A stretch of DNA of 64,000 nucleotides, taken from the NCBI GenBank assembly GCA_000092065.1, contig CP000589.1; one strand, written 5' to 3'. The notes beneath the pieces are model-generated. The model did not search any database. It had not been told where the DNA came from and saw nothing but the letters and a program-made list of their open reading frames with translations. Each line of letters begins with the position of its first letter. Positions within the stretch are counted from its first letter, which is position 1. Positions 29,668 through 43,250 of the stretch are shown here, piece after piece. Both the position numbers and the translations under genes were made by a program. Source of the DNA: Ostreococcus lucimarinus. Its lineage: Eukaryota.

Positions 29668-32600
29668 CTAAGGCCCGCGCGATTTGATTGGCGATTGCGC
29701 GGGCGTGTTCGCCGCCGACGGCAACCGACTCGACGGGCGCGGGACGACGGCGAAGGCGTCGTCACCGAGCGACGATCCGATTTGAACCTTGACGGGCAGC
29801 GGCACGGCTAAATTGAATTCGTTCGCGACGGATTCCATGGCGTGTCGCACGATTTGTGCGATGGCTTTGGCGCTGCGCGCGTCGCACTCGAAAACGCACT
29901 CGTCGTGCACCGTCAACACGAGCTGACATCGTTCGATGAGATACTTTGTGCGCAAAGTATCGATGACGCGCACGACTGCGGTCTTGAAGATATCTGCCGC
30001 GCTGCCTTGGCACACCGTGTTCACCGCCTGCCGCTCCGCGGCGGCCCTGTCGTCGTTATTCTTTGAGTGCAAATCTGGAAAATATCTGTGCCGAGCGCTG
30101 ATGGTCGTCACTCGAGCGATTGGCTTTTCCTCTCGCGCGCGGATGACGATGCCGTCTAGCCATTCCATCAGACGTGGAAGCATAGATTTGAATCGAGCGA
30201 CCTCGGATTTCGCCGCTTCTTCGCACATGCGCAAATCAGATGCCAATTTCTTAGCTCCGCTGCCGTACAACAATCCGTATACCAAATTTTTGCAATTCGT
30301 TCGCTCTTCGGCGAGCACGGTGTCGGGGGCTTTTCTGTACCACTTGCTAGCGAGCATCGTAAACGGGTCGTCTTTTAAGTTGTTTGGTTCAGGATTTTGA
30401 AGCATGTGAATCAGCGTGCGATCTCCACTGAAGTGCGCCATGATTCGAAGCTCCAGCTGCGAATAATCCGCGCGAACGAACACCTTGGCCGCCGGGGGCA
30501 CGAAGGCGGACCGTATCGATATCTTCGGCGCGTCGAGGCCGTAGAATTGATCACCACACGTCATGTCGTGCGCTAGCGAGTGAAAATTTGGTTCGCTGTG
30601 CGCCAACCTTCCACAGTCGTGATTGGTTTGAAAGATGGAATAGCGAATGCGAGAGTCATCGGCGTACATGCCGAGAATGGTGTCGGCGAAACCGCGTCTC
30701 TTGAACACGCTCCTGTGTTCTATGATGAGCAACGGAAACGGATGATTACTTTGCTCGTAGAGCTTGCGCAAGTTGTTGGCGTCGATACTGGTCTTCGCGC
30801 CCGGCGGCGGCGTGAGTTTCAAATGTTTGTACAGACGATCTTGCAGGTAGGTGTTGTTCGTCAGCGCTCTGCGTGCGATCGACACCGAAGAATCGAGAAC
30901 TATCCATTTTTGTGTCAAAGCGTATTCCTCTAGCTTCTTGAGACGATCATCCATCGTCGCCATCTCCTCGCGCATCTTGCGTGCGTCGAAAGGAATTCGG
31001 ACGGTTTGCATCGCCACGATCGGAGCTACAAACGGCATTTCGATCTCCATGAGAGGTCGGAGAAGCTCTTTCTCTTGACACTCTTTCCAAGTTAGGTGAC
31101 CCATGGCGTAGCACGCCGCGGTTGCTCGCGATAACGGTTTTAGATGGTCTCGATCTTTACCAAATCGATCCACAATATGACACGCCGCCTCGACGCCGCT
31201 CGTCGCTTCGCCCAACTCGGCGCTAAAGAGTTTCATAAGCGGATCGGTCGGGTCTGTCCCACGCATCAGCGCATCGTGTGCGCTTGCTTTGACTTCATCC
31301 GCACTTGGACGAAGAAGCCACGCGGCGATACGCACGTCCACGCACGGCTGTGCGAAACAGAAGAGACGGGCGGCGTACGTACTCGCTCGCGCGTCGACAA
31401 TGTTGCAGAGCTGTGACTGCAAGTCGATCGTAAACTTTCTTGGGCCTTCTTTCGATAGAATCTCGAGCGCACGCGCGATAGGGATGCCGACTATCTCGCG
31501 ATTTCTGATCGCATTCTTCTGCTCGTGCCTGTCGTACAAAAGCTTGGCGATGAACACAGCGCGCGAATTCAACGCCACAGCGATGCGCGTCGGCTCCTCG
31601 AACGCTCGACGCTCCCCCGACGACTCGTGAACGCTTTTCGGCTGGAAAATCACGGAATATGCCGAGGAATCCTGCCATATGCTCAAGAACGTCTCGATAT
31701 CTTCCGAGGTTTCGAGCAAGGTTGTGCCGACTGCCGTTCGCACATCGAGTTCAATCGCCAGATCTAACGAGTTCTCATTCGCCATGCCGGCTTCGATTTC
31801 TCGTATCTCGGCTAATCTAGTCTCAGTCTCTTCGCGTTCCTCCCGCGTCTGCTCTGCTACAATTTCTCTGGCGCGAGCTAAAATCTCCCGAGCCGCTCGC
31901 ACGATGGCCGAGGGCGCCATGCCGTTCTTGTTGTACTGCTTCAACACGGCGGCGATTTTATCGACACTACCCAAAGTCACGATGGCTTTCGGCGTCGTGA
32001 TGCCTCCCGTGTACAACGCTCTGGCGCGATGAATTCCAATGTACGGAATTTTCGTCAATTCTAATATCTCTTCCTGTGCCCCAGCGGTGATTCGATCGCT
32101 GATTCTAGTGATTAAACCCTCCATGTCGCCCCAACCGAGAGTACCACAAATCGCCGCTACGTACGACGCGAAACGCGCACACGATTTTTGTTCCTCTAAG
32201 ACGTCGAACGCACGAACACCGTACTTGCTGGTGATACTTTCGATTGGAACTTCTTGTATCAAGTCCGTAAGAAACAATGCGACGTGAAAGCGCTGACATG
32301 CGAATCGCTGAAGCTGGTGAGCAATTGTGATGTCACGTTTGTTCGAGCGCAACCTTTGAACATAACGCTCGTCTATGCCAACCTTTTCCGCGATCCGTAA
32401 TTGCTCCGCGTTCAGATTCGACCAGAGCACTGCGAGTGCGTCCAGCGTCCTAAATTTGTTCAGATTCACCGGCGCCCCTTCGTCGTCGAGCACCGGTGGA
32501 GCAGTCAAGAGATAGAGTAAATGCAGTGGCGTGCTCAGTACCAAATCTTCGCGAGCCGTCTTCACGTCTCGAATGATTGGCTGCACTTGATCCAGAGGCA

Positions 32601-34731
32601 TCATACCTCCAGCCACGGCGTTTCCGAGCGCCGATGCGCTCCACAAATAAGCAGTCACATTCCAAACGAGAAGTGCATTCTTTTGGCACCACCGCAGCGC
32701 GTCGATGGCGGTTTGTCTCACGGACTCGTCAAAGTCGTTTAGCGCCGACAGCAAAGTACACTTGACGTAGTCCTGCACATCTGTGGGTATCTTCACTAAA
32801 CCAGCCGCGACCGCTTCGAGCATAATACGCCGCATGCCGACTTCGGCCACCGCGCTAGTGAGCTCATCAGACGGACCGTCGACGAGAGCGCACACGTTGT
32901 CTAATTCAGCGAGTTTCGGGCAAAATATGATCGCAGATCCACTGGTATCAAGTCCGGCACGACCGGCGCGACCTGTCATCTGCTGGATGTCTCGCGCATT
33001 CAGCTTTTTCCATCCCATATTCGTATCGCGAAGAATGACGCGTCGAGCTGGAAGGTTGACGCCGGTGGCGAGCGTACTGGTGCAGCACAAGACGCGAATG
33101 ACTCCGCGTTTGTAGGCGTCGGCCACAGCCTCGTTTTCCTCTCGAGAGAGTCCAGCGTGATGAAACGCGACACCATCTTTGATGTATGGAAGCACATCGC
33201 TCTTAGCACCGAGTGCGGTTTCATAGCCAACGACGATCTCGTCTCGCGACAACGTAGCGTTGTGGATTTGGCGCGGCACGGTGCACTGCATCATATTTCG
33301 AAGCTGATCTGCCAACGTCTTACACGCTGCTCGCGTCGAACAAAACACCAAAACCGATCCATCTTCATCGATCGTTTCCTGAGCGAGCTCTGCGATGTGT
33401 GCGTTGTCTGAATTCGGCGATTTATTCAGCATCGTCCGAATCACGTGCTTCGTCGCCGGATGGAAAATCTCGCAACCAACCTTGACGCACACTTCTAGTC
33501 TGATTGGACGAAAGTTCGTCACATAGAGCCGAGCGAACAACCAATCAGCGAGCGCTTTCAGGTTTGGGATCGAGGCGCTCATACCTATGATTTGCATCGA
33601 ACGCTGATCGCGCGTGCCACCGCGAGTGTTCCCGACTGAGTACGTTGTCTGACTTCCATCTTCGTCGCCTACAGTCGGCTCGCCGCTCGCTCGCGCTTTA
33701 CGCCTCCACAATCCACTCGCGTACACGAGTTTGGTAAGGAACAACTCCATCGTTGCCCCGCGATCATCGTCTTGAATCAAGTGCAGCTCGTCGACGATGA
33801 CGGCGCTCAGTTCGTGTAGCCGATTCTCTTCTAGCAGTCTCGACGTCACTTGGTTCGCCCGCTCTGGCGTGAGCACCAATAAGGTGTTCATCTTTGAATC
33901 GCTCGGAAACGCTCCGCCTCGCCCGCCGTACATCCTTCGCAATCGAAACTCCGTTCCCGCAAAGAGATTTTCTAAACTGTCCGCGCGCTCTTCGCAAAGA
34001 GCGACAAACGGCAACACAAACATCGCCACGCTCCCCGGTCGCTCGCGAAACCGACGCATCAATAGTAAGTCCGCGACGAGACTTTTACCCCCGCTCGTTG
34101 GTGCGCTGTACAACAAATTCACGCGCCCCTCCATCACCCCCGGCAGAGACAGGCACTCCATCTGCCACGGGTACAACTCTCGCACGCCCTTCGCCGCGAG
34201 CGCTTCGCGCGCAGACTCCGGCACGCCCCAAAACTCCAAGTCTCTCCGCCCCGTCGCCGTCACCGGACGTTCGATCGACGTCGACGCCTCATTTCCACGA
34301 CTCGCGCGCGCGTCATCCGTCGTTCTCGACCGCGACCGCGCCGACCGTTCCGCGCTCAGTCTCGCCGCGACCTCCGCGAGCGCTTCGTCGTCGACGTCGT
34401 CCAACAGCGTCTCAAGCCTTTCCGGCGTTTTCGCCCCACTGTGTCTCGAAAACCGCGCGGAATCCTGCGTCAACCCTCGCACGCGATCGCTGCGCGCGCG
34501 ATCGTCCGACCGTTCGGCGCTTCCGTCGTCGCGCGACGCGGCGACGTCGACGCGAGGCCGTTTCAACCGTTCATCGCGCGACTCGCTCGAAAACGCCTCG
34601 TTCGCCGCACGCCGTCGCGCGTTCTCGTCGTTCTCCCCCACGGTGTCGCGCATGAGGTCGACGATCATGGTCTCCGGGTCGAGCGACCGTCGACGGCGCG
34701 ACAGGCGACGCGCGGGCGTGGAGCCGGGCAT
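29668..34731 (-). CDS. POLQ: DNA polymerase theta (helicase-polymerase fusion), single exon
   Basis: ATG checked at 34729..34731. Helicase motifs are APTSGGKS, VDELH and QMTGRAGRAG. Family-A polymerase motifs are DYSQLELRIMAH (A), RTNCKNLVYGLLYGSG (B) and TVHDECVFE (C). Confidence 0.9.
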   Translation of the reverse strand: MPGSTPARRLSRRRRSLDPETMIVDLMRDTVGENDENARRRAANEAFSSESRDERLKRPRVDVAASRDDGSAERSDDRARSDRVRGLTQDSARFSRHSGAKTPERLETLLDDVDDEALAEVAARLSAERSARSRSRTTDDARASRGNEASTSIERPVTATGRRDLEFWGVPESAREALAAKGVRELYPWQMECLSLPGVMEGRVNLLYSAPTSGGKSLVADLLLMRRFRERPGSVAMFVLPFVALCEERADSLENLFAGTEFRLRRMYGGRGGAFPSDSKMNTLLVLTPERANQVTSRLLEENRLHELSAVIVDELHLIQDDDRGATMELFLTKLVYASGLWRRKARASGEPTVGDEDGSQTTYSVGNTRGGTRDQRSMQIIGMSASIPNLKALADWLFARLYVTNFRPIRLEVCVKVGCEIFHPATKHVIRTMLNKSPNSDNAHIAELAQETIDEDGSVLVFCSTRAACKTLADQLRNMMQCTVPRQIHNATLSRDEIVVGYETALGAKSDVLPYIKDGVAFHHAGLSREENEAVADAYKRGVIRVLCCTSTLATGVNLPARRVILRDTNMGWKKLNARDIQQMTGRAGRAGLDTSGSAIIFCPKLAELDNVCALVDGPSDELTSAVAEVGMRRIMLEAVAAGLVKIPTDVQDYVKCTLLSALNDFDESVRQTAIDALRWCQKNALLVWNVTAYLWSASALGNAVAGGMMPLDQVQPIIRDVKTAREDLVLSTPLHLLYLLTAPPVLDDEGAPVNLNKFRTLDALAVLWSNLNAEQLRIAEKVGIDERYVQRLRSNKRDITIAHQLQRFACQRFHVALFLTDLIQEVPIESITSKYGVRAFDVLEEQKSCARFASYVAAICGTLGWGDMEGLITRISDRITAGAQEEILELTKIPYIGIHRARALYTGGITTPKAIVTLGSVDKIAAVLKQYNKNGMAPSAIVRAAREILARAREIVAEQTREEREETETRLAEIREIEAGMANENSLDLAIELDVRTAVGTTLLETSEDIETFLSIWQDSSAYSVIFQPKSVHESSGERRAFEEPTRIAVALNSRAVFIAKLLYDRHEQKNAIRNREIVGIPIARALEILSKEGPRKFTIDLQSQLCNIVDARASTYAARLFCFAQPCVDVRIAAWLLRPSADEVKASAHDALMRGTDPTDPLMKLFSAELGEATSGVEAACHIVDRFGKDRDHLKPLSRATAACYAMGHLTWKECQEKELLRPLMEIEMPFVAPIVAMQTVRIPFDARKMREEMATMDDRLKKLEEYALTQKWIVLDSSVSIARRALTNNTYLQDRLYKHLKLTPPPGAKTSIDANNLRKLYEQSNHPFPLLIIEHRSVFKRRGFADTILGMYADDSRIRYSIFQTNHDCGRLAHSEPNFHSLAHDMTCGDQFYGLDAPKISIRSAFVPPAAKVFVRADYSQLELRIMAHFSGDRTLIHMLQNPEPNNLKDDPFTMLASKWYRKAPDTVLAEERTNCKNLVYGLLYGSGAKKLASDLRMCEEAAKSEVARFKSMLPRLMEWLDGIVIRAREEKPIARVTTISARHRYFPDLHSKNNDDRAAAERQAVNTVCQGSAADIFKTAVVRVIDTLRTKYLIERCQLVLTVHDECVFECDARSAKAIAQIVRHAMESVANEFNLAVPLPVKVQIGSSLGDDAFAVVPRPSSRLPSAANTPAQSPIKSRGP

Positions 34732-34936
34732 GATTGATGCGCGCGCGTAATCCAGGCACCTTTCGTCGCGCGCGCGCGTCTATCGCTCGGCGCGCGCGCG
34801 CGGCGCGCGCATGCGCCGAAGGGTGCGCGGCGATACGTTTTCGCGACGCGCGCGCGCGCGACGACGTCGCGGCGCGGCGCGGTGTGCGGCGCGTGGGTCT
34901 CGTCGGTCGAGTTTTTATGTGGATTCTGGAACAACG

Positions 34937-37900
34937 CTACGGCGCGGACGCTCCGGCGTTCGCGGCGTCGACGCCGGTGACGTCGCGCTTCAGGAGGTAG
35001 TGGGCGAATAAGGGTAAGTCTGGAAACGTGTGCGCGATGTAAGCCTCGACGATTTTGCGCGAAGACGTCCAAGGATCGGCGGCGGTGTCTTCGGGACGCA
35101 GGAGCACGGCGACGTTGGATCCGAGCGCGCGGAGCATCTCCGCGCGTTCGGCTTCGAGCGGCGGATGCTCGTGCATATTACGCGCGAAGCGCACCAGATC
35201 GAACAAACGATTGCCGTAAGAGTAATCCTTGGGTTCGTTTTGTCTCGGCGGAGGAACGACGTCGGCGGCGCGCTTGCCGCCGCGGCGGCGGTTGCGCTTT
35301 GAATTTGTCTTCGACGCAGCTTCCGCCGCGCGAGCCGCGCGGGCGTCTTCCCACGTCTGCTGCATGTTCGCCGTGCGTTGTGCGTACCTATCTGCGCGCA
35401 CTAGTAGAGATGGAACGACGAGAGACTTCCAGTTGCGAATCGATTGCGCCGCTCGCTCGGCTTGTCCAGGTCGCCCCTTCCAAACCGTCTGCGCGAGATC
35501 TGCTTCGTCCTTTTCCGAAAGAGAGTTCACGATGCGCCGATCGAAAATTTCTCGAACGGCTTCCATGCACTCTTCAACGTCCCAAAGCGCGGGGTGCTCG
35601 CAAACCTCCGTGGCGGTGGGACGCTCACGCGGATCCGGATCCAACATCCGGTGAAGGAGTTCGCGCGCCGCGACTGCGGTGTGCGACGGTAACATCGCGG
35701 TCTCGATCGCTTGAAGACTGAATTTGCCTTTTACGATGCGTTGATTTTCAAATCCAACGTCCAGCGCGGTGGATGCGCTCAGATCGAGTTCTTGCGTTGG
35801 GGATTTGTTTCGCGAATCCATCTTCCTCTCTTGCTTGTACGGCGATTGCAAACCAGTCATGATGGTGTACATGAGACATCCAAAACTCCAGACGTCAACC
35901 TTGGGCGTCAGGGGAGCGTTAAGCAACACTTCCGGTGGTCGACCTTGTAAACCAATGTTCACCCCGTACCCTTCAAAAGTTGTGAGCGAGTACGTGTTGC
36001 CATCCGTCGCCTTGTTTGCGTCCTTCAATCGCACCCCGAGGCCCAAATCCGCGAGCTTGAACTCGCCGTCCGCGCTCCGAAGGCAGTTGTCGGCTTTGAT
36101 GTCGTTGTGTGTTACACCGGCAGCGTGCACGTCTTCCACAGCTTGAGCGAGTTGTCGCACGGCATCCATGCGCTCGACGTGCGAGATCGCCGGCGCGCCG
36201 CCAGCAGTGCCCGCATTCTTCAGCCACGTCGCCAAAGACTCGCCGCACAGCTCCATGGCGGTGTAGATTGCCCCATCACCGCGGTCGACGTCAAGTTTAC
36301 TACCCAGTATATGCGTCGCCCGCGTGCTTCGCTCGTTCAAGTGCTTGTGAATGGCAATCTCTCTTTCAATCAATGACTTCATGTTGTCTCCGCGCTCGCC
36401 CGGCGGCAAGGGGATGCGCTTGATCGCGGCGTCGCGACGAACGACTCTGTTGCCCGCACCCTCGTCGTAATATCCCTTGAACACGACAGTTCCGAGCGAT
36501 CCTCGACCGAGAATTTCAGCCTCGTTATACCAAATATTACGTCCGGCGTTCACCCACCGATCACTATCCGAATCATTCCCAGACGTCGGCGCCGGTAAAA
36601 GTGAATCCGTGATTCGATGGGCACGAATGAACGCCTGTATCTGACGCTCCAAATTCTCTAGCTTCGTCTCCGCGCTACGCACAATGTCTTCGTCCACTCC
36701 CATATCTTTGGCTTGCGCGATTCGCTCGCGCAGCTTCACAGGGTCAACATCTTCTGCGGCGTGTAATAAATCTCTCGCCGCGCCTAGAGCGAGAACGCGC
36801 GCACGTCCAAGCTTGCTCGCCTTGGCTGCAGCGTCGACGTCCTCGGCATCCATTTGCAGCGCATCCATAAGCTCGGTAGAGATATCCTCTTCTTGTAATT
36901 CTTCCATGTTCTCATGCGACACTTGCAAAGCGCTCCCAGCCAGGCGCGCTTGGATGCGCGAAGAGAGCTCGTTCATGAGCTCCTCCATCTCCACCCCTTG
37001 CGCCTCGAGCGCCTGAGGTCCGCCCTCGATGGGCATGGGCGCCCCGGCGAACTCGTTGATGCGGTTGACTGTGTCTAAGAACGCCTGTCGGTGCATTTCT
37101 CCAAGCGCCGCGATTTGCTCGAGCTTTCCTAATTGCATACTAAACGCAGCCACGGACGGTTCGATTTGCGGCAGGTGTACTTCTGACATCCTTCCCTTGG
37201 CGTTCCACATCTCACGCAACAACACCTCAGCCTTGACCACGTCCGCATCGTCGCGTGTGTCCGTGATTTCTCTCGCGCGCGCCGTGAGCGCTTTCAGTTC
37301 AGCTCGAAGATCCGCCTTGCGCACCGCCGCTCTAAATTCGCGCAGCGCGTCGAAAATCTTTGTCACGGGCGGAAACACCTTCGCCTTGCCCTCGGGCGTA
37401 CCGTGGAACGCGATCAACTTGCGCTCTTCTTCAAGAATTTCTTCATCCGTCATCTCACCTCTAAGAAATCTGTGCGTGTGCTGCGTCGTCTCGACGATGG
37501 AATCACCGAACGATCTCGTCCTTGATCTCAAACGATTGATGAATCGCAAGCCACCAAAGATGGCGTTCATCAGAAACCATCGAGAATCGTGTTGCTTTCC
37601 TAAATAGGGCGCCGTATATTCATCAAACCACTTTCTCGCGCGCACGCTCGTCATCTCGCCAAACTTGTCGAGCTCACCCGCGGACATCATCTTCGTCACT
37701 TCCGGTAGCGTGAGGCCGTTGTGCGACCACTCGTTGAGCCACTGCTTTTGAATGTTGTCCAGTTGCCCGATGAAACGAGCGCTATGTTCTTCGATCGCAG
37801 CCGCACGCGTGAGATCGGTGAGATCGGACATGTACTCCTCCCACTGTTTTCCCACCGGCACGTTCGAACCGCGATGACCTGCAAATTCCAAGCCGCACAC

Positions 37901-38902
37901 GACGACGCGGACGTCGGTCGTCTTCGCTAATCGCAGCGCTGTCTCGATATCTTGCTTTATCATCTCCCGATTCTCCGGCGAATTGTTCACCGGAGGCAAA
38001 ACCCAAACGAATAATTGCGGCGATAAGCTATCGCTAAACTCAGAGAATGCGAGCTCGTGCATGGGGATGACCGTGATCGGCGTATCCGGTCGAGCGTCGA
38101 CGACGCGGCCCGATTCCTCCATGCGCCGGACTAAAATCTGATGCAAGCGTAGCCCTTCCCAGTCGCGCGGTAAGCCGGCGAGCGTCATGTACGCGTTCGG
38201 TCTGAACATCGATAACAAAGGCGAGTACCTCGCTCTCTTCGTCGCTTGCATGAGCAGCATGTTGGAGATCATGTTATCGAAGAGGGCCTCGCCGCGTTGC
38301 GTGAGCTCGATATCCATCGTTTTATTGCTTCGAACGTTGTACAGAAACGTTGATTTTCGCGCGGATCCTTGCGTAAACGTCAAGAACTTCGACGCGCTCC
38401 TAGATTGACCGACTATGGCTCCCAGAACGGCGATGTTTCCGCGCATGCCCTCCATCGCCGACGCGCTCAACCAGTTCCACAGCGCCGGCGCGAACGAAGG
38501 CGTGAGCGCCTCCTTCGCCACCGGTTCGCGCCCACCGTACCATCGCGCCAGCACTTTCGGCGCGCTCAGCTCGGGTTCGTACGTCTTCTGCACCGCTAAT
38601 CTATGCTCCGTCATCTCGTTCCCCGTGAGTTCCGAACTCGCCACGTTTTCCCGCGTCCAGTCGTAATCTTGCGCCAACCAACCCTTCAGCAGTTTCGACC
38701 CCGGTCTCGGCGTCTCCAACCCGAGCTCGCGCGCGCGCTGCGACTCAAAACTAGACGACGCCGACGTGGAGTACACCCCGCGCGGCGTCCGATCGCGCGC
38801 GCTCGTCGACGCGTCGAGCCCCGAGCGCGCGCGCGCGTCGACGCCGCCCGCCGTCTCGCGTCCCAGTCCCACCGCCGCGCGCGCCGCGCGACGACGCAGC
38901 AT
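34937..38902 (-). CDS. Protein kinase plus KEN ribonuclease domain protein (IRE1/RNase L-type module) with a large unrecognised N-terminal region
   Basis: ATG checked at 38900..38902. The kinase-like domain is at about 35582..36514 (GRGSLGTVV, AIKRI, HNDIKADN, DLG, DVWSFG). The KEN-like domain is at about 34985..35581 with RFARNMHEH at 35165..35182 (the RNxxxH motif). In the N-terminal roughly 796 aa (36515..38902) I recognise no domain, TM segment or signal peptide. Confidence 0.7.
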   Translation of the reverse strand: MLRRRAARAAVGLGRETAGGVDARARSGLDASTSARDRTPRGVYSTSASSSFESQRARELGLETPRPGSKLLKGWLAQDYDWTRENVASSELTGNEMTEHRLAVQKTYEPELSAPKVLARWYGGREPVAKEALTPSFAPALWNWLSASAMEGMRGNIAVLGAIVGQSRSASKFLTFTQGSARKSTFLYNVRSNKTMDIELTQRGEALFDNMISNMLLMQATKRARYSPLLSMFRPNAYMTLAGLPRDWEGLRLHQILVRRMEESGRVVDARPDTPITVIPMHELAFSEFSDSLSPQLFVWVLPPVNNSPENREMIKQDIETALRLAKTTDVRVVVCGLEFAGHRGSNVPVGKQWEEYMSDLTDLTRAAAIEEHSARFIGQLDNIQKQWLNEWSHNGLTLPEVTKMMSAGELDKFGEMTSVRARKWFDEYTAPYLGKQHDSRWFLMNAIFGGLRFINRLRSRTRSFGDSIVETTQHTHRFLRGEMTDEEILEEERKLIAFHGTPEGKAKVFPPVTKIFDALREFRAAVRKADLRAELKALTARAREITDTRDDADVVKAEVLLREMWNAKGRMSEVHLPQIEPSVAAFSMQLGKLEQIAALGEMHRQAFLDTVNRINEFAGAPMPIEGGPQALEAQGVEMEELMNELSSRIQARLAGSALQVSHENMEELQEEDISTELMDALQMDAEDVDAAAKASKLGRARVLALGAARDLLHAAEDVDPVKLRERIAQAKDMGVDEDIVRSAETKLENLERQIQAFIRAHRITDSLLPAPTSGNDSDSDRWVNAGRNIWYNEAEILGRGSLGTVVFKGYYDEGAGNRVVRRDAAIKRIPLPPGERGDNMKSLIEREIAIHKHLNERSTRATHILGSKLDVDRGDGAIYTAMELCGESLATWLKNAGTAGGAPAISHVERMDAVRQLAQAVEDVHAAGVTHNDIKADNCLRSADGEFKLADLGLGVRLKDANKATDGNTYSLTTFEGYGVNIGLQGRPPEVLLNAPLTPKVDVWSFGCLMYTIMTGLQSPYKQERKMDSRNKSPTQELDLSASTALDVGFENQRIVKGKFSLQAIETAMLPSHTAVAARELLHRMLDPDPRERPTATEVCEHPALWDVEECMEAVREIFDRRIVNSLSEKDEADLAQTVWKGRPGQAERAAQSIRNWKSLVVPSLLVRADRYAQRTANMQQTWEDARAARAAEAASKTNSKRNRRRGGKRAADVVPPPRQNEPKDYSYGNRLFDLVRFARNMHEHPPLEAERAEMLRALGSNVAVLLRPEDTAADPWTSSRKIVEAYIAHTFPDLPLFAHYLLKRDVTGVDAANAGASAP

Positions 38903-39511
38903 CGCGCGCGCGCGCTCGATCGTTACCTACGCGTCGCCCCCCGCGCGTCTCTCCCGCGCGCCCGCCCCGCGCGCGCGCCGCGCCGCCGCCGTCGTCTCGC
39001 GCCAATCCGCCTCGAGCGTTCGGTCCGCGTCCGGCGCGACCGAACGCCGGCTCGAGATCGCCGGCGCGAGCGACGTCGAGCCCGCGTCGAGGTCTTCGCG
39101 TCGACGCGCGCCGACCGCGCGCGCTCGACGCCGCCGGCGCGCTGTGGGGCGGCGACGCGCGCGCGCGCGTGTTTCGTATGGCGTCAGTGAGGAGACGAAT
39201 TTCTGGAATTCGGCGCATTCGGAACGCCCATCGAATCACGTATAGTAAACCGGAGACGCGCGCCGAGGGTTCAGGCGCCGCGCGCGCGTCAGAAGGCCGC
39301 GCGCGCGACGCGACGCGACCGTCGAGCGCGCGGACGGTGGGAGCGTCACGTCGGTGGCCCTCGGCGAGGACGCGCGCGCGCGACGCGGCGAAGACGCGGC
39401 GCGCAGAGGGAGAATTCCCGAACGATTCGGTGACGTAGATCTGGCGCGAATTGTCGGTGGGAAATCGCGAAACCGGCGACGGGGCGCGCGGTGAGCGTCG
39501 ACGGTGACGAG
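38903..39511. promoter_or_regulatory. Largest intergenic region of the window; divergent promoter between the kinase-KEN and PWWP genes
   Basis: 609 nt separate the divergent ATGs. It contains an imperfect inverted repeat at 39011..39056 and the motif GAATTTCTGGAATTC at 39197..39211. No convincing ORF or RNA gene was seen. Confidence 0.4.
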
Positions 39512-41734
39512 ATGCCGGCGTGCGCGATGGGAAACGATGCCGCGGAGCCGTACGCGAGCGCCGCGGGACGCGCGACGCAGGAGGTGCGGAAAGCGAGCGA
39601 CGCGACGCGCGGGGGACGGGGAGAGATCAGAGGAGAGACGCCGGATTTGCCGCTGTCTTACGCTCGAAACGGCGGGACGTGCTCGACGAGCGATGACTCG
39701 AGGCCGAGTTCGAGGATGGCGATGGGCAAGGATGGGAATTCGCGCGCGAGCGGGGACGGGACGACGTCGGGAATGGAGGAAGAGCGCAGACGAGCGAGAG
39801 AGGCGACTCGCGCGTGGTTCTCGGAGCGCGCGGCGAACGGAGATCTGGAGCTCATGCGCGCGGAGTTACACTCGATGGGACAGAAGGAGTTACAGCGCAT
39901 GTTTGTCGAGATGTTTGACCGCGCGACGACGAGCAACAATAATCAGTGGTTGCGAAGACGAATCGCCAACGGGTTGGGCTTGGAGGACGTCGCCGAGCAC
40001 GTCGTGAGCTCGCAAGCCAAGTTGGCTTCGGCGACGAACGAACGCGTTCCATCGAAGAGACAAAGTGCGCGTCGCAATGCGGTGGAAACCGCGGCAGTAA
40101 CACCGGCGGCACAGGCGACGCCGAACACGCGGGGCGCGGAGTCCCCGGACGAGGCGGCGGAGTTCACCCCTGATGGCGTTCGCAAGTCTCGTCGAGCGGT
40201 GAAGCCGAAGGCGATATTTGATTCCGACGCGTTTCCTTCCGCGGCCAAGGTGAGTGAGGAGCGTAGGCGAGAACGAAAGCGACAAGAGGCATTGGAGCAG
40301 GCGGCGACGTGCGCGAGTGGTGTAACGACGGATCATCACGGCGGCAAGGCCGCCGTAGGACGCCGCGTGCGAGTGTACTGGCCTCTCGAAGGCAAGTTCT
40401 TTGCGGGTGTCGTCACTGCGTACAACGCGCGCACTGGCTTGCACCACATCGACTACGACGACGGCGACAAGGAAGAAATCAAGCTGGCGACGCCCGAACA
40501 GCCTCGCAAGTTTGAGGCCATCGAGCACCCGGCGTTGGCGTCGACGCCTTCTCCGGCGAGTGACTGGCCTGCACTTACGAATACTGTCGATTCATCGATA
40601 TCGTTGTCTATGCCGCAGCCGGGACGACCTGCTGATATTCTCAGTACGCTCCCGTCAAGCTGGCCGGCGGTGGGATCGCTTGTGTGGGGTCGGGTGCGCG
40701 GTCACGGCTGGTGGCCCGGAGCGGTGCACGACAAGGACGCGAGTCACGACATGCAAGAGATCAGTTTCTTCGACAACAGTAGGGCTCGACTTCACCGCCA
40801 CGACTTGTTGCCCTTTCAACAGTATTACATGGTGCTGCGCGACGCGAAAAAGACGCACGCGTACGCCGAGGCGGTTTCTCGAGCGGCGGAAACGTATGAA
40901 AGCCGACGGCAGCGAACGGTGAAGCGACGTTCGAAGAAGGAAGAGCAATCAAACGTCGAAGAGTCGAGTGAGCCGCCGAGAATATGGCATTTCGAACGCG
41001 AGGGGGCAAAGAAGTCGCACAAGCGGTCGAAAGACGTTGACGTCGACGACGCAGGCGCGGCGAAGCGAGGCAAAGTGAACGAACACTCGACGACGGTATT
41101 CGGTTCGATTGAAGCTCCGAAGACTCTGAACGATCTAAATAAGAGCTTGGAAGAGATGAAGGCCAAGATGTTACCGCTCGCGAAAGAGAGCCGAAAGACG
41201 CTCAACAAACATCTGGTAGACACCGCCAGAAAAGTGAAAACGGAGGCGGCTGACGACGACGAAGAGACACTGATCGCCGCCGATGAACGTGTCGTGGTGC
41301 TCGACGAGTTGGCGTCCATCGAATCCTTGATTGCGTGGAGCGAAAACAAAGCTGCGAAGTCGCCCGCCAAGACTCCCGATTTGTCCTTCATGACAAAACG
41401 CGGCGATGACATTTCACCCTCGGACCCGAAAGGGCTTCTACGACAACCGAGTGAAAACTTGTTGTGCTTGGGTGAGATTAGTGAGTTTTTCGACGGTACC
41501 GCGCGAGCGGATCCCTTGGGAATCGACGATCCAATTGTCGCCGATTTGGGCGCGGACGAAGTCGCCAAGATGACCGCGCCATCCACGCCCGAGCAACACG
41601 GCATCGAAGGCGAGGGCAGTCCGTTCGCAAAAAGCAACATGAGTGACTCGTGCACCACGCTTCACGCCTCTTACGGTGACAAAAAGATTAACGTCTCAGA
41701 GACGCCGGTGACGAAAGGAGCGCTCTCCGCCTGA
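39512..41734 (+). CDS. Chromatin-reader-like protein with Tudor/Agenet-like and PWWP domains
   Basis: The track start at 39491 is GTG and the first ATG is at 39512. The Tudor-like part is RRVRVYWPLEGKFFAGVVTAYNARTGLHHIDYDDGDKEEIKL. The PWWP part is GSLVWGRVRGHGWWPGAVHD...FFDNSRARL. Confidence 0.6.
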   Translation: MPACAMGNDAAEPYASAAGRATQEVRKASDATRGGRGEIRGETPDLPLSYARNGGTCSTSDDSRPSSRMAMGKDGNSRASGDGTTSGMEEERRRAREATRAWFSERAANGDLELMRAELHSMGQKELQRMFVEMFDRATTSNNNQWLRRRIANGLGLEDVAEHVVSSQAKLASATNERVPSKRQSARRNAVETAAVTPAAQATPNTRGAESPDEAAEFTPDGVRKSRRAVKPKAIFDSDAFPSAAKVSEERRRERKRQEALEQAATCASGVTTDHHGGKAAVGRRVRVYWPLEGKFFAGVVTAYNARTGLHHIDYDDGDKEEIKLATPEQPRKFEAIEHPALASTPSPASDWPALTNTVDSSISLSMPQPGRPADILSTLPSSWPAVGSLVWGRVRGHGWWPGAVHDKDASHDMQEISFFDNSRARLHRHDLLPFQQYYMVLRDAKKTHAYAEAVSRAAETYESRRQRTVKRRSKKEEQSNVEESSEPPRIWHFEREGAKKSHKRSKDVDVDDAGAAKRGKVNEHSTTVFGSIEAPKTLNDLNKSLEEMKAKMLPLAKESRKTLNKHLVDTARKVKTEAADDDEETLIAADERVVVLDELASIESLIAWSENKAAKSPAKTPDLSFMTKRGDDISPSDPKGLLRQPSENLLCLGEISEFFDGTARADPLGIDDPIVADLGADEVAKMTAPSTPEQHGIEGEGSPFAKSNMSDSCTTLHASYGDKKINVSETPVTKGALSA

Positions 41735-41939
41735 GCGTAGAGGCGATAGATTACACAACATTTTCCACCACCGTCCTCTTCGGTGGGTCCACTTTCGAAC
41801 GTACCCTATTTTGACATTTAATACTAAAAAGCCGTGTACACTAAAAGAACGAGCGCGCGAACCTGCGCACGCGCGACCTCTTCTCTCGCCTCACAGTCAG
41901 CCTCGGGCGCGCGAACGCGACCTTTTCGACCTCGTAAAC

Positions 41940-42617
41940 ATGCCCAAACGTTGGCTTCCGCTCGAAGCCAACCCAGAGGTGATGAACGCATTCGCCCGTC
42001 ACCTCGGTCTGAGCGACGACTTCGCGTTTCACGACATCTACGGCTTTGACGACGAACTGTTGGACTTTGTACCGCAGCCGTGCGTCGCCGTGTTGCTCCT
42101 GTTCCCCATCACCCCCGCCACGGAAGCGATCGAGGGCGAGCCGAAGCCCGAGACGAGCTCGAGCGGCGAGCCGTGGTTCGCGAGACAGACGGTGGGGAAC
42201 GCGTGCGGGACGATGGGGGTGCTGCACGCCGCGCTGAACGGCGCGGGCGCGACGAAGCCGGGGAGTTACTTTGAGCAGCTGCGAGCTCGCTGTGAGGGTT
42301 TGGACGCAGACGCGCGGGCGAAGATCATCGAAAGTGACGACGCTTTAGAAACCGCGCACGTGGGGGCGTCCGTGGAGGGTCAGTCGGAGGTGCCGCGCGA
42401 AGACGCCGAGGTGGATTTGCACTTTGTCGCGCTCGTCGAGGCGAACGGAGGAATATGGGAGCTCGATGGACGCAAACCGACCGGACCCGCGTACCACGGA
42501 CCGAGCTCGGATAAAGGTTTGTTGCGCGACTGCGTGCCCGTGATCAAAAAGTTCATGAACGCCGCGAACGGATCGATCCATTTCAACGCCATCGCGCTCG
42601 CGGCGAATCTCGGCTAG
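41940..42617 (+). CDS. Ubiquitin C-terminal hydrolase, UCH-L1/L3 family
   Basis: Starts at the internal ATG (residue 44) of ORF 41811..42617. Motifs are MPKRWLPLEANPEVMNAF, the catalytic Cys context RQTVGNACGTMGVLHA, and HFVALVEANGGIWELDGRK. Confidence 0.9.
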   Translation: MPKRWLPLEANPEVMNAFARHLGLSDDFAFHDIYGFDDELLDFVPQPCVAVLLLFPITPATEAIEGEPKPETSSSGEPWFARQTVGNACGTMGVLHAALNGAGATKPGSYFEQLRARCEGLDADARAKIIESDDALETAHVGASVEGQSEVPREDAEVDLHFVALVEANGGIWELDGRKPTGPAYHGPSSDKGLLRDCVPVIKKFMNAANGSIHFNAIALAANLG

Positions 42618-42806
42618 CGAGCCGACGCGTCTCACCGAGCGCGCGTTGTACACTGAACTCTCGAATCGCACTACAACGTCGTCATCGCTCGCGTCGTTCG
42701 CATCGCGATCGCCGCGGATCGATCGCGCGAGAAACTATCTAGATCGCGACGCGTCGCCGTCTCCGACGCCGGCGCGTCGCCGTCTCGTCTTCGCCCCCTC
42801 GCGCGC

Positions 42807-43250
42807 TCAATATCTCGTCCCCTCCGCCGGTTGCGGCGCCCTTCGACACTCCGGTCGCATCATCGCGTGATACACCGCGTTCAGCGCGTCCTCGATCGAG
42901 TTATTCCTCTTCCACGCCTGCGCGACGCCCAGCGTCTTCAAATCCACCGTCCCGTCGCCCTTCACGAATGGCAGATTCACCTTCGTCTTAAATCGCATCT
43001 CCGGCGGTCTCTCCGGGTACGCGCTCCCGCACTCGATCGCGAGCTCCAGCACGCGCATGTCCAGCGTCGTTCCCGCGGGTCCGAGGATCGTCCCCGTCCA
43101 CGCGCGCATGTCCTCGTCCTCGTCCGCGTCCGCGAGTCCGTACGAGAGGTACGGCGGCAGGCCCGCGCCGCCCTTCTCGCCCTTCTCCAGCTCCTTCAGC
43201 AGCTTGAACGCGCGCGGCACGACGACGTCCTCCGAGGACGACCCGAACAT
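42807..43250 (-). CDS. Ubiquitin-conjugating enzyme variant (UEV, MMS2/UEV1-like)
   Basis: ATG checked at 43248..43250. Motifs are VPRAFKLLKELEKGEKG, WTGTILGP and YPERPPEMRFKTKVNLPFV. There is no catalytic Cys context. Confidence 0.85.
   Translation of the reverse strand: MFGSSSEDVVVPRAFKLLKELEKGEKGGAGLPPYLSYGLADADEDEDMRAWTGTILGPAGTTLDMRVLELAIECGSAYPERPPEMRFKTKVNLPFVKGDGTVDLKTLGVAQAWKRNNSIEDALNAVYHAMMRPECRRAPQPAEGTRY

Follow-up and report, generated by a model that had tools for sequence, protein, structure and literature searches.

A putative soluble kinase-KEN protein with a lineage-specific N-terminal module in Ostreococcus lucimarinus

A stretch of 64,000 nucleotides from the picoalga Ostreococcus lucimarinus (contig CP000589.1 of assembly GCA_000092065.1; the whole stretch is called the window below) carries at positions 34937..38902, on the minus strand, an open reading frame (ORF) of 1321 amino acids (aa). 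We think it probable that the product is a soluble, non-membrane protein that belongs to the IRE1/RNase L kinase-KEN superfamily and is, on present data, restricted to the Mamiellophyceae. From its N to its C terminus the protein consists of a lineage-specific module of 730 aa, a non-RD protein kinase, an HPxxW junction and a divergent KEN/HEPN domain, all encoded on the same minus strand. The kinase-KEN module is known through two inputs, namely misfolding in the lumen of the endoplasmic reticulum (ER) for the stress sensor IRE1 and 2',5'-oligoadenylate (2-5A) for the antiviral RNase L. If our reading holds, this effector has been rewired at least once more, in a soluble member that combines a complete kinase with a conserved ribonuclease (RNase) active site and whose large putative input module has no relative elsewhere. 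The protein is also a concrete case of a domain missed by curated hidden Markov models (HMMs); its annotation mentions nothing beyond a kinase. The family has a narrow taxonomic range, and we regard it for now as a good lead and not as a discovery.

An exact-sequence look-up identified the encoded protein as XP_001419845.1 (ABO98138.1, UniProt A4S325) of O. lucimarinus CCE9901, whose annotation goes no further than 'predicted protein' or 'protein kinase domain-containing protein'. The reading frame is uninterrupted within the window, an in-frame TAG stands 27 nucleotides upstream of the ATG, and the A4S325 cluster contains a 1321-aa ORF from the MMETSP transcriptomes that is flagged complete. 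The ORF is a real, transcribed, single-exon gene. An earlier note on this DNA, made from the letters of the window, had allowed for several genes or for upstream exons encoding a signal peptide; the complete 1321-aa transcriptome ORF argues against both, and because of it we treat the frame as one transcribed gene that lacks no upstream exons. In addition, seven full-length relatives align to the whole ORF at 70-100% identity, which gives at least seven Ostreococcus-type lineages that keep it. Since conservation runs from end to end in these relatives and in far more divergent orthologues, the ORF is not a chance product.

The extent of the family was surveyed by an exhaustive HMMER search with an N-terminal profile against 1.84 billion (1.84e9) representative proteins at E (expectation value) <= 0.001. 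This search retrieved 23 proteins, and those inspected were fragments or orthologues of the same kinase-KEN family. The family includes two AT-rich full-length orthologues (1461 and 1292 aa) that, judging by their composition, may come from Bathycoccus. The HMMER matches also include several GC-rich fragments, one of them on a 1.3-Mb contig with Peptidase_C12 and PWWP as neighbours, as in the window. When the full protein or the C-terminal alignment served as query, word-indexed searches returned only close relatives and unrelated kinases, and scans of viral contigs with the N-terminal and KEN alignments found no relatives. Because all the inspected HMMER matches belong to this one family, the N-terminal module appears, as far as can be seen from the sequences retrieved, to occur only together with the kinase-KEN unit and to be specific to the Mamiellophyceae. 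The survey thereby answers a question raised in the earlier note, namely whether the N-terminal region travels with the kinase-KEN module: among the matches inspected it was found with no other.

The divergent KEN domain and its predicted active site

We assign aa 1103-1306 (34985..35596) to the KEN ribonucleases of the HEPN superfamily because a profile-profile match to canonical KEN sequences is joined by invariant Tyr, Arg, Asn and His residues in deep orthologues. The canonical reference consisted of 120 KEN-domain proteins, all of which carry PF06479. Against it, hhalign placed an alignment of nine family members with a probability of 95.7% (E 1e-8, 123 columns), and a second hhalign comparison, on a separately built alignment of 69 sequences, gave 94.8% (E 4.9e-8, 124 columns). 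The probability was 93.3% when the HPxxW motif was left out, 92.4% when a low-complexity insert within the domain was kept, and 88.6% when only the seven Ostreococcus sequences were used. By comparison, 20 column-shuffled queries reached at most 3.3% and a reversed query 0.3%. We conclude that aa 1103-1306 most plausibly represent a genuine, strongly diverged KEN/HEPN RNase domain with a maintained active site. The proposal in the earlier note that a kinase is followed by a KEN-type domain with a Tyr/Arg-Asn-x3-His active site is thus borne out by hhalign, at about 95%, and by the invariance of these residues in deep orthologues.

The predicted active-site helix (35165..35218) contains Tyr1229 (35216..35218) and the Arg1241-Asn1242-x3-His1246 motif RNMHEH, which direct translation places exactly where the earlier note had it (35165..35182), as it does all the other motifs listed there. 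Tyr1229, Arg1241, Asn1242 and His1246 are invariant in nine sequences that share 27-29% identity with O. lucimarinus in the KEN domain, and they make up four of the 29 invariant columns in a total of 161. A GC-rich syntenic orthologue (locus L005) carries RNVHEH at this site. The helix aligns on DLLRAxRNKxHH of IRE1 and on DLLKFIRNLGEH of RNase L, and its Arg and His stand as far apart (Rx4H) as they do in RNKxHH of IRE1 and RNLGEH of RNase L; in the hhalign comparison the Tyr lies one column out of register. Because Rx4H, the Asn and the Tyr are invariant while the rest of the domain has drifted to such low identity, the active site appears to be maintained and not a relic, and the KEN-type domain is probably active as an RNase.

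The second landmark of the domain is the FPDL motif of its C-terminal helix (YIAHTFPDLPLFAHYLL, 35015..35026), identified by alignment with RNase L and IRE1. This helix aligns with YFQ(K/E)(T/K)FPDLVIYVY of RNase L and YFTxRFPxLL of IRE1, and the F, P and D of FPDL do not vary within the family. The low-complexity insert (aa 1178-1224, 35231..35371), which contains the basic cluster KRNRRRGGKR, separates the NWK..VVPSLL helix from the catalytic helix. The insert varies in length, from 47 aa in O. lucimarinus to about 150 aa in the AT-rich orthologues, and the basic cluster is always present. The insert may serve as an RNA-binding patch close to the active site or as a nuclear localisation signal, or it may be neutral.

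Searches against the PDB sequences depended on this insert. A C-terminal profile that included it retrieved no KEN protein from the PDB, and a profile without it gave three matches, the second and third of which were pig and human RNase L. RNase L was the only enzyme family among the three, and its two matched segments are collinear and located on the catalytic helix and the FPDL helix. In these C-terminal profile searches the ribosomal protein uL30 (6zu5_LF0) outscored RNase L, with E 0.004-0.017 over aa ~1180-1310; we take the uL30 match to be spurious, reflecting compositional or helical similarity. A separate observation concerns the C-terminal 260 aa of an AT-rich orthologue, which gave a faint Pfam match to Hypoth_Ymh (PF09509) over the RNxxxH region, at an E of 0.25 that is not significant. 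Hypoth_Ymh is itself a HEPN family, and the match agrees with HEPN-type chemistry.

Several results weigh against the assignment and against the wider reading of the protein built on it. Checking the KEN call with a KEN HMM and with the catalytic positions, as the earlier note had advised, gave a divided outcome: the catalytic Tyr, Arg, Asn and His are conserved as described, and the Pfam Ribonuc_2-5A model (PF06479) stays below its cutoff (E 0.065, 13.8 versus 23.3 bits), with a match that spans only 18 residues (YGNRLFDLVRFARNMHEH). In the AT-rich orthologues the Pfam scan gave no Ribonuc_2-5A match. The RNase L matches in the PDB profile search have E values of 0.66-0.82 and are not significant by themselves. 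Most of the hhalign signal resides in the C-terminal half of the domain, which reaches 93.9% alone, compared with 0.3% for the N-terminal half alone. Moreover, the full-length hhalign match was reached after manual trimming of the low-complexity insert, whose removal raises the match from 57 to about 123 aligned columns. An AlphaFold2 model of aa 780-1321, built from 11 close sequences, has a mean pLDDT (predicted local distance difference test) of 38.8 and leaves the fold unconfirmed; in this low-confidence model of the kinase-KEN region the KEN secondary structure is predicted to be helical throughout. The kinase ancestry, considered below, seems compatible with IRE1 and not diagnostic of it. 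Finally, dimerisation, RNase and kinase activity, the sensor role of the N-terminal module and the localisation of the protein are all things that we infer.

The kinase and the N-terminal module

The kinase domain occupies aa 792-1105 (35588..36529), in agreement with the extent of 35582..36514 given in the earlier note, and Pkinase (E 4e-32) is the sole Pfam match above threshold in the full protein. It is of the non-RD type, with HND and DLG, and has a complete catalytic set. Direct translation places HNDIKADN at 36086..36109, DLG at 36041..36049 and Lys828 of AIKRI at 36419..36421, and the glycine loop GRGSLG begins at residue 799. Conservation was assessed in an alignment of seven divergent sequences that joins Ostreococcus-type sequences with three much more divergent orthologues. 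In these seven, the glycine loop, Lys828, the alphaC Glu, the PPE motif and the alphaI Arg are all invariant, as are the His-Asn-Asp-x-Lys-x-x-Asn catalytic loop (Asp934 and Asn939) and Asp952 of DLG, and the AT-rich orthologues carry the canonical DFG. The earlier note had suggested from HND and DLG that the domain might be a nucleotide-binding pseudokinase, as in RNase L. We do not favour this suggestion, since all catalytic residues are invariant and the AT-rich orthologues have DFG; judged by its residues, the domain resembles an active non-RD kinase more than it does a pseudokinase.

IRE1 (3fbv, E 2e-13) was the top PDB sequence match for the full protein. The alignment passes the end of the kinase and runs through HPxxW into the first KEN helix (HPALWDVEECMEAVREIFDRRIV versus HPLFWPKSKKLEFLLKVSDRLEI), pairing HPALW (aa 1103-1107) with the HPLFW of yeast Ire1. 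The kinase-only profile searched against the PDB gave PLK3 and TTK at 1e-18, IRE1 at 2e-17 and PERK at 2e-16, and it is because this profile ranks IRE1 behind PLK3 and TTK that the kinase ancestry is not taken as diagnostic.

Upstream of the kinase, the protein begins with a variable leader rich in Arg, Ala and Ser (aa 1-54, 38741..38902), which contains 10 R, 10 A, 9 S and 5 acidic residues. The sequence of the leader varies and its composition is kept in all orthologues, also in the AT-rich one (MRRRALADARRR...SSSS). It may represent a transit peptide for an organelle or, just as well, low complexity driven by GC content; the resemblance to a transit peptide is the reason why the protein might be organellar. 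The leader is followed by the conserved, lineage-specific module (aa 55-785, ~730 aa, 36548..38740), which has 67-80% identity within Ostreococcus and no recognisable domain. The earlier note had seen in the N-terminal region no signal peptide, no transmembrane (TM) helix, no ankyrin repeats and no familiar domain, and this description stands. Kyte-Doolittle hydropathy, averaged over 19 residues, nowhere exceeds 0.96 along the protein, well under the values of TM helices; the N terminus has no hydrophobic h-region of a signal peptide; aa 55-786 give no match to ankyrin or to any other Pfam family at E <= 10; and the N-terminal region has no match in NCBIfam, PADLOC or the PDB sequences, the NCBIfam and PADLOC scans having yielded kinase matches or nothing.

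An AlphaFold2 model of the N-terminal region is weak (mean pLDDT 58) and suggests an alpha/beta part followed by spectrin-like helical bundles. The first part is a predicted beta-alpha-beta-alpha-beta-alpha-beta region at ~aa 194-344 (37871..38323, pLDDT 50-70), with the strands DIEL, YMTLAG, LFVWVL and RVVVCG. The second consists of long, partly acidic helices at ~aa 350-766 (36605..37855, pLDDT 70-85), a candidate oligomerisation stalk, which end in the invariant helix TKLENLERQIQAFIR directly preceding the kinase. Foldseek searches of this low-confidence model against the PDB found nothing at E <= 1e-3, and the weak top matches were RecA-like or CobU folds (CobU, RadA, DnaB), with a best E of 0.03.

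Two enzymatic identities for the alpha/beta part were considered and rejected. A GTPase or P-loop reading of GSARKST and LAGLPRDWEG was abandoned as these motifs are not kept in divergent orthologues, where the Walker-A-like GSARKST becomes GTPKKIT, GGKSKKH or SGKNVNG. A RecA-like nucleoside triphosphatase was dismissed as well, there being neither a conserved Walker A motif GxxxxGK[ST] nor a significant fold match. Few polar residues are invariant. Because GSARKST is not conserved and invariant polar residues are few, the module is more likely to be structural or regulatory than enzymatic.

Alternative explanations, relation to known systems and a proposed mechanism

The likeness to KEN could have arisen by convergence or chance, in which case RNxxxH and FPDL would occur by coincidence in an unrelated helical domain formed by the last 200 aa. 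The sequence-to-profile statistics from both Pfam and the PDB (E 0.065 and 0.66-0.82) leave room for this, as do the higher score of uL30 and the unconfirmed fold. We nevertheless consider it very improbable: hhalign gives 88-96% in five query variants against 3.3% or less for 20 shuffles, the match is collinear across the whole domain with all four catalytic positions coinciding, and the domain lies immediately after a kinase with an HPxxW junction, which is the context of every kinase-linked KEN. A pseudo-RNase is another explanation, namely a signalling kinase whose KEN-derived tail serves as a non-catalytic appendage for dimerisation or RNA binding. The Rx4-6H motif has disappeared from about 5% of KEN domains and from several HEPN families, which act as binding domains (PMC3710099), and here the kinase, with every catalytic residue, is the only domain to pass curated thresholds, next to a KEN-like region that is highly diverged, interrupted by an insert of 47-150 aa and rejected by the Pfam model. 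Yet a tail freed from catalysis would have to be squared with an Rx4H, an Asn after the Arg and an upstream Tyr that are strictly invariant despite 27-29% identity over the domain, and we judge such a loss of activity to be distinctly improbable.

The identity of the protein within the superfamily can also be read differently, as the IRE1 orthologue of the Mamiellophyceae in which signal peptide, luminal domain and TM helix have been replaced and which still serves the ER unfolded-protein response, for example through peripheral recruitment to the ER or through sensing other than of luminal misfolding. The kinase-KEN junction and the first KEN helix are indeed IRE1-like, IRE1 is the best full-protein PDB match, and no paper on an Ostreococcus IRE1 was found in the searchable literature. 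A metagenome scan for canonical KEN domains showed no Ostreococcus-like locus in the best 80 of 450 matches; these best 80, however, are dominated by other eukaryotes and do not establish that IRE1 is absent. The catalytic and FPDL helices (DLLKFIRNLGEH, TFPDL) are at least as RNase L-like as IRE1-like, and neither hydropathy nor Pfam reveals a TM helix or a remnant of the luminal domain. On balance we find the IRE1-orthologue explanation unlikely, and prefer to describe the protein as a soluble kinase-KEN member in its own right. The most GC-rich canonical-KEN candidate in the scan (L066), which has a signal peptide, a TM segment and a kinase, was set aside as not Ostreococcus-like; it looks fungal.

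When this soluble kinase-KEN protein is set beside IRE1, the two have in common a Ser/Thr kinase that leads directly into the KEN domain, the HPxxW junction and the first KEN helix, the Tyr/Arg-Asn-x3-His residues with the same Rx4H spacing, and a YFxxxFPxL helix. By analogy, oligomerisation-driven and nucleotide-dependent activation of a metal-independent RNase would be expected in the alga too. Unlike IRE1, the algal protein lacks a signal peptide, a luminal sensor domain and a TM helix and instead carries an unrelated 730-aa N-terminal module; the Ostreococcus kinase has HND and DLG in place of HRD and DFG; and the KEN domain has a basic insert of 47-150 aa and is too diverged for PF06479. 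With RNase L it shares the architecture of a soluble sensor, a kinase-like domain and KEN, and the closest local matches are the catalytic helix (DLLKFIRNLGEH versus DLVRFARNMHEH) and the FPDL helix, which are statistically non-significant alone. It differs in that Pfam scans find no ankyrin repeats, and in that the kinase of RNase L is a pseudokinase whereas the algal kinase keeps all catalytic residues.

Other KEN architectures have been published, including kinase-KEN with CCCH, KEN with ubiquitin and KEN with BRCT, as well as expansions of solo KEN in Oikopleura and monocots (Anantharaman et al. 2013, PMC3710099). The 'third architecture' announced in the earlier note is therefore wrong as a count, these CCCH, ubiquitin, BRCT and solo KEN forms having been described already. 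They show that in eukaryotes KEN has joined up with a range of partners, and the algal protein adds one more such combination; it differs in that none of the listed partners resembles its N-terminal module. It is thus a new kinase-KEN architecture, absent from the PMC3710099 listing, and is neither IRE1 proper nor RNase L.

A mechanism can be proposed by analogy with IRE1 and RNase L. The N-terminal module would serve as the input and oligomerisation device, and a signal acting on it would bring at least two kinase-KEN units together. ATP binding, probably with trans-autophosphorylation, would then stabilise a back-to-back kinase dimer, and the paired KEN domains would form a metal-independent endoribonuclease that leaves 2',3'-cyclic phosphate ends. 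The basic insert beside the catalytic helix may hold RNA or act as a localisation signal. The enzyme might cut one particular transcript, in the manner of IRE1, or RNA in bulk, in the manner of RNase L.

A bolder proposal, to which we give rather little credence, is that the Mamiellophyceae carry their own RNase L-like innate stress or antiviral switch, in which the N-terminal module would sense a signal new to kinase-KEN enzymes and oligomerise an active unit that cleaves cellular or viral RNA. Candidates for this signal are a ligand of viral origin or of nucleotide type and, should the leader prove to be a transit peptide, a cue from an organelle. Were such a switch real, the IRE1/RNase L effector would have in these algae an independent input that involves neither the ER nor 2-5A. 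The Mamiellophyceae are under heavy prasinovirus pressure, O. tauri can be transformed and the viruses that infect it are cultured, and the family offers a tractable system in which to ask what else switches kinase-KEN on.

Genomic neighbourhood

Upstream of the kinase-KEN gene, 39491..43250 of the window encodes a PWWP/Tudor protein, a ubiquitin C-terminal hydrolase L3 and a UEV-type E2 variant, and this neighbourhood is partly syntenic with the GC-rich locus L005. Peptidase_C12 and PWWP adjoin the kinase-KEN gene in L005 (1..4004) as they do in the window. The L005 copy of this gene is split over several frames, which could be due to assembly frameshifts or introns.

Around the gene, at 33797..39245, both strands of the window contain many overlapping ORFs of 100-317 aa in other frames or on the opposite strand. 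Their products are rich in Arg, Ala, Ser and Pro, and they look like by-products of the 60-70% GC content and not like genes. The downstream neighbour (29668..34731, minus strand) encodes a DNA polymerase theta-like protein of 1687 aa with DEAD/Helicase_C, a POLQ helical domain and DNA_pol_A; it lies on the same strand as the kinase-KEN gene, and its start is 205 bp past the kinase-KEN stop codon.

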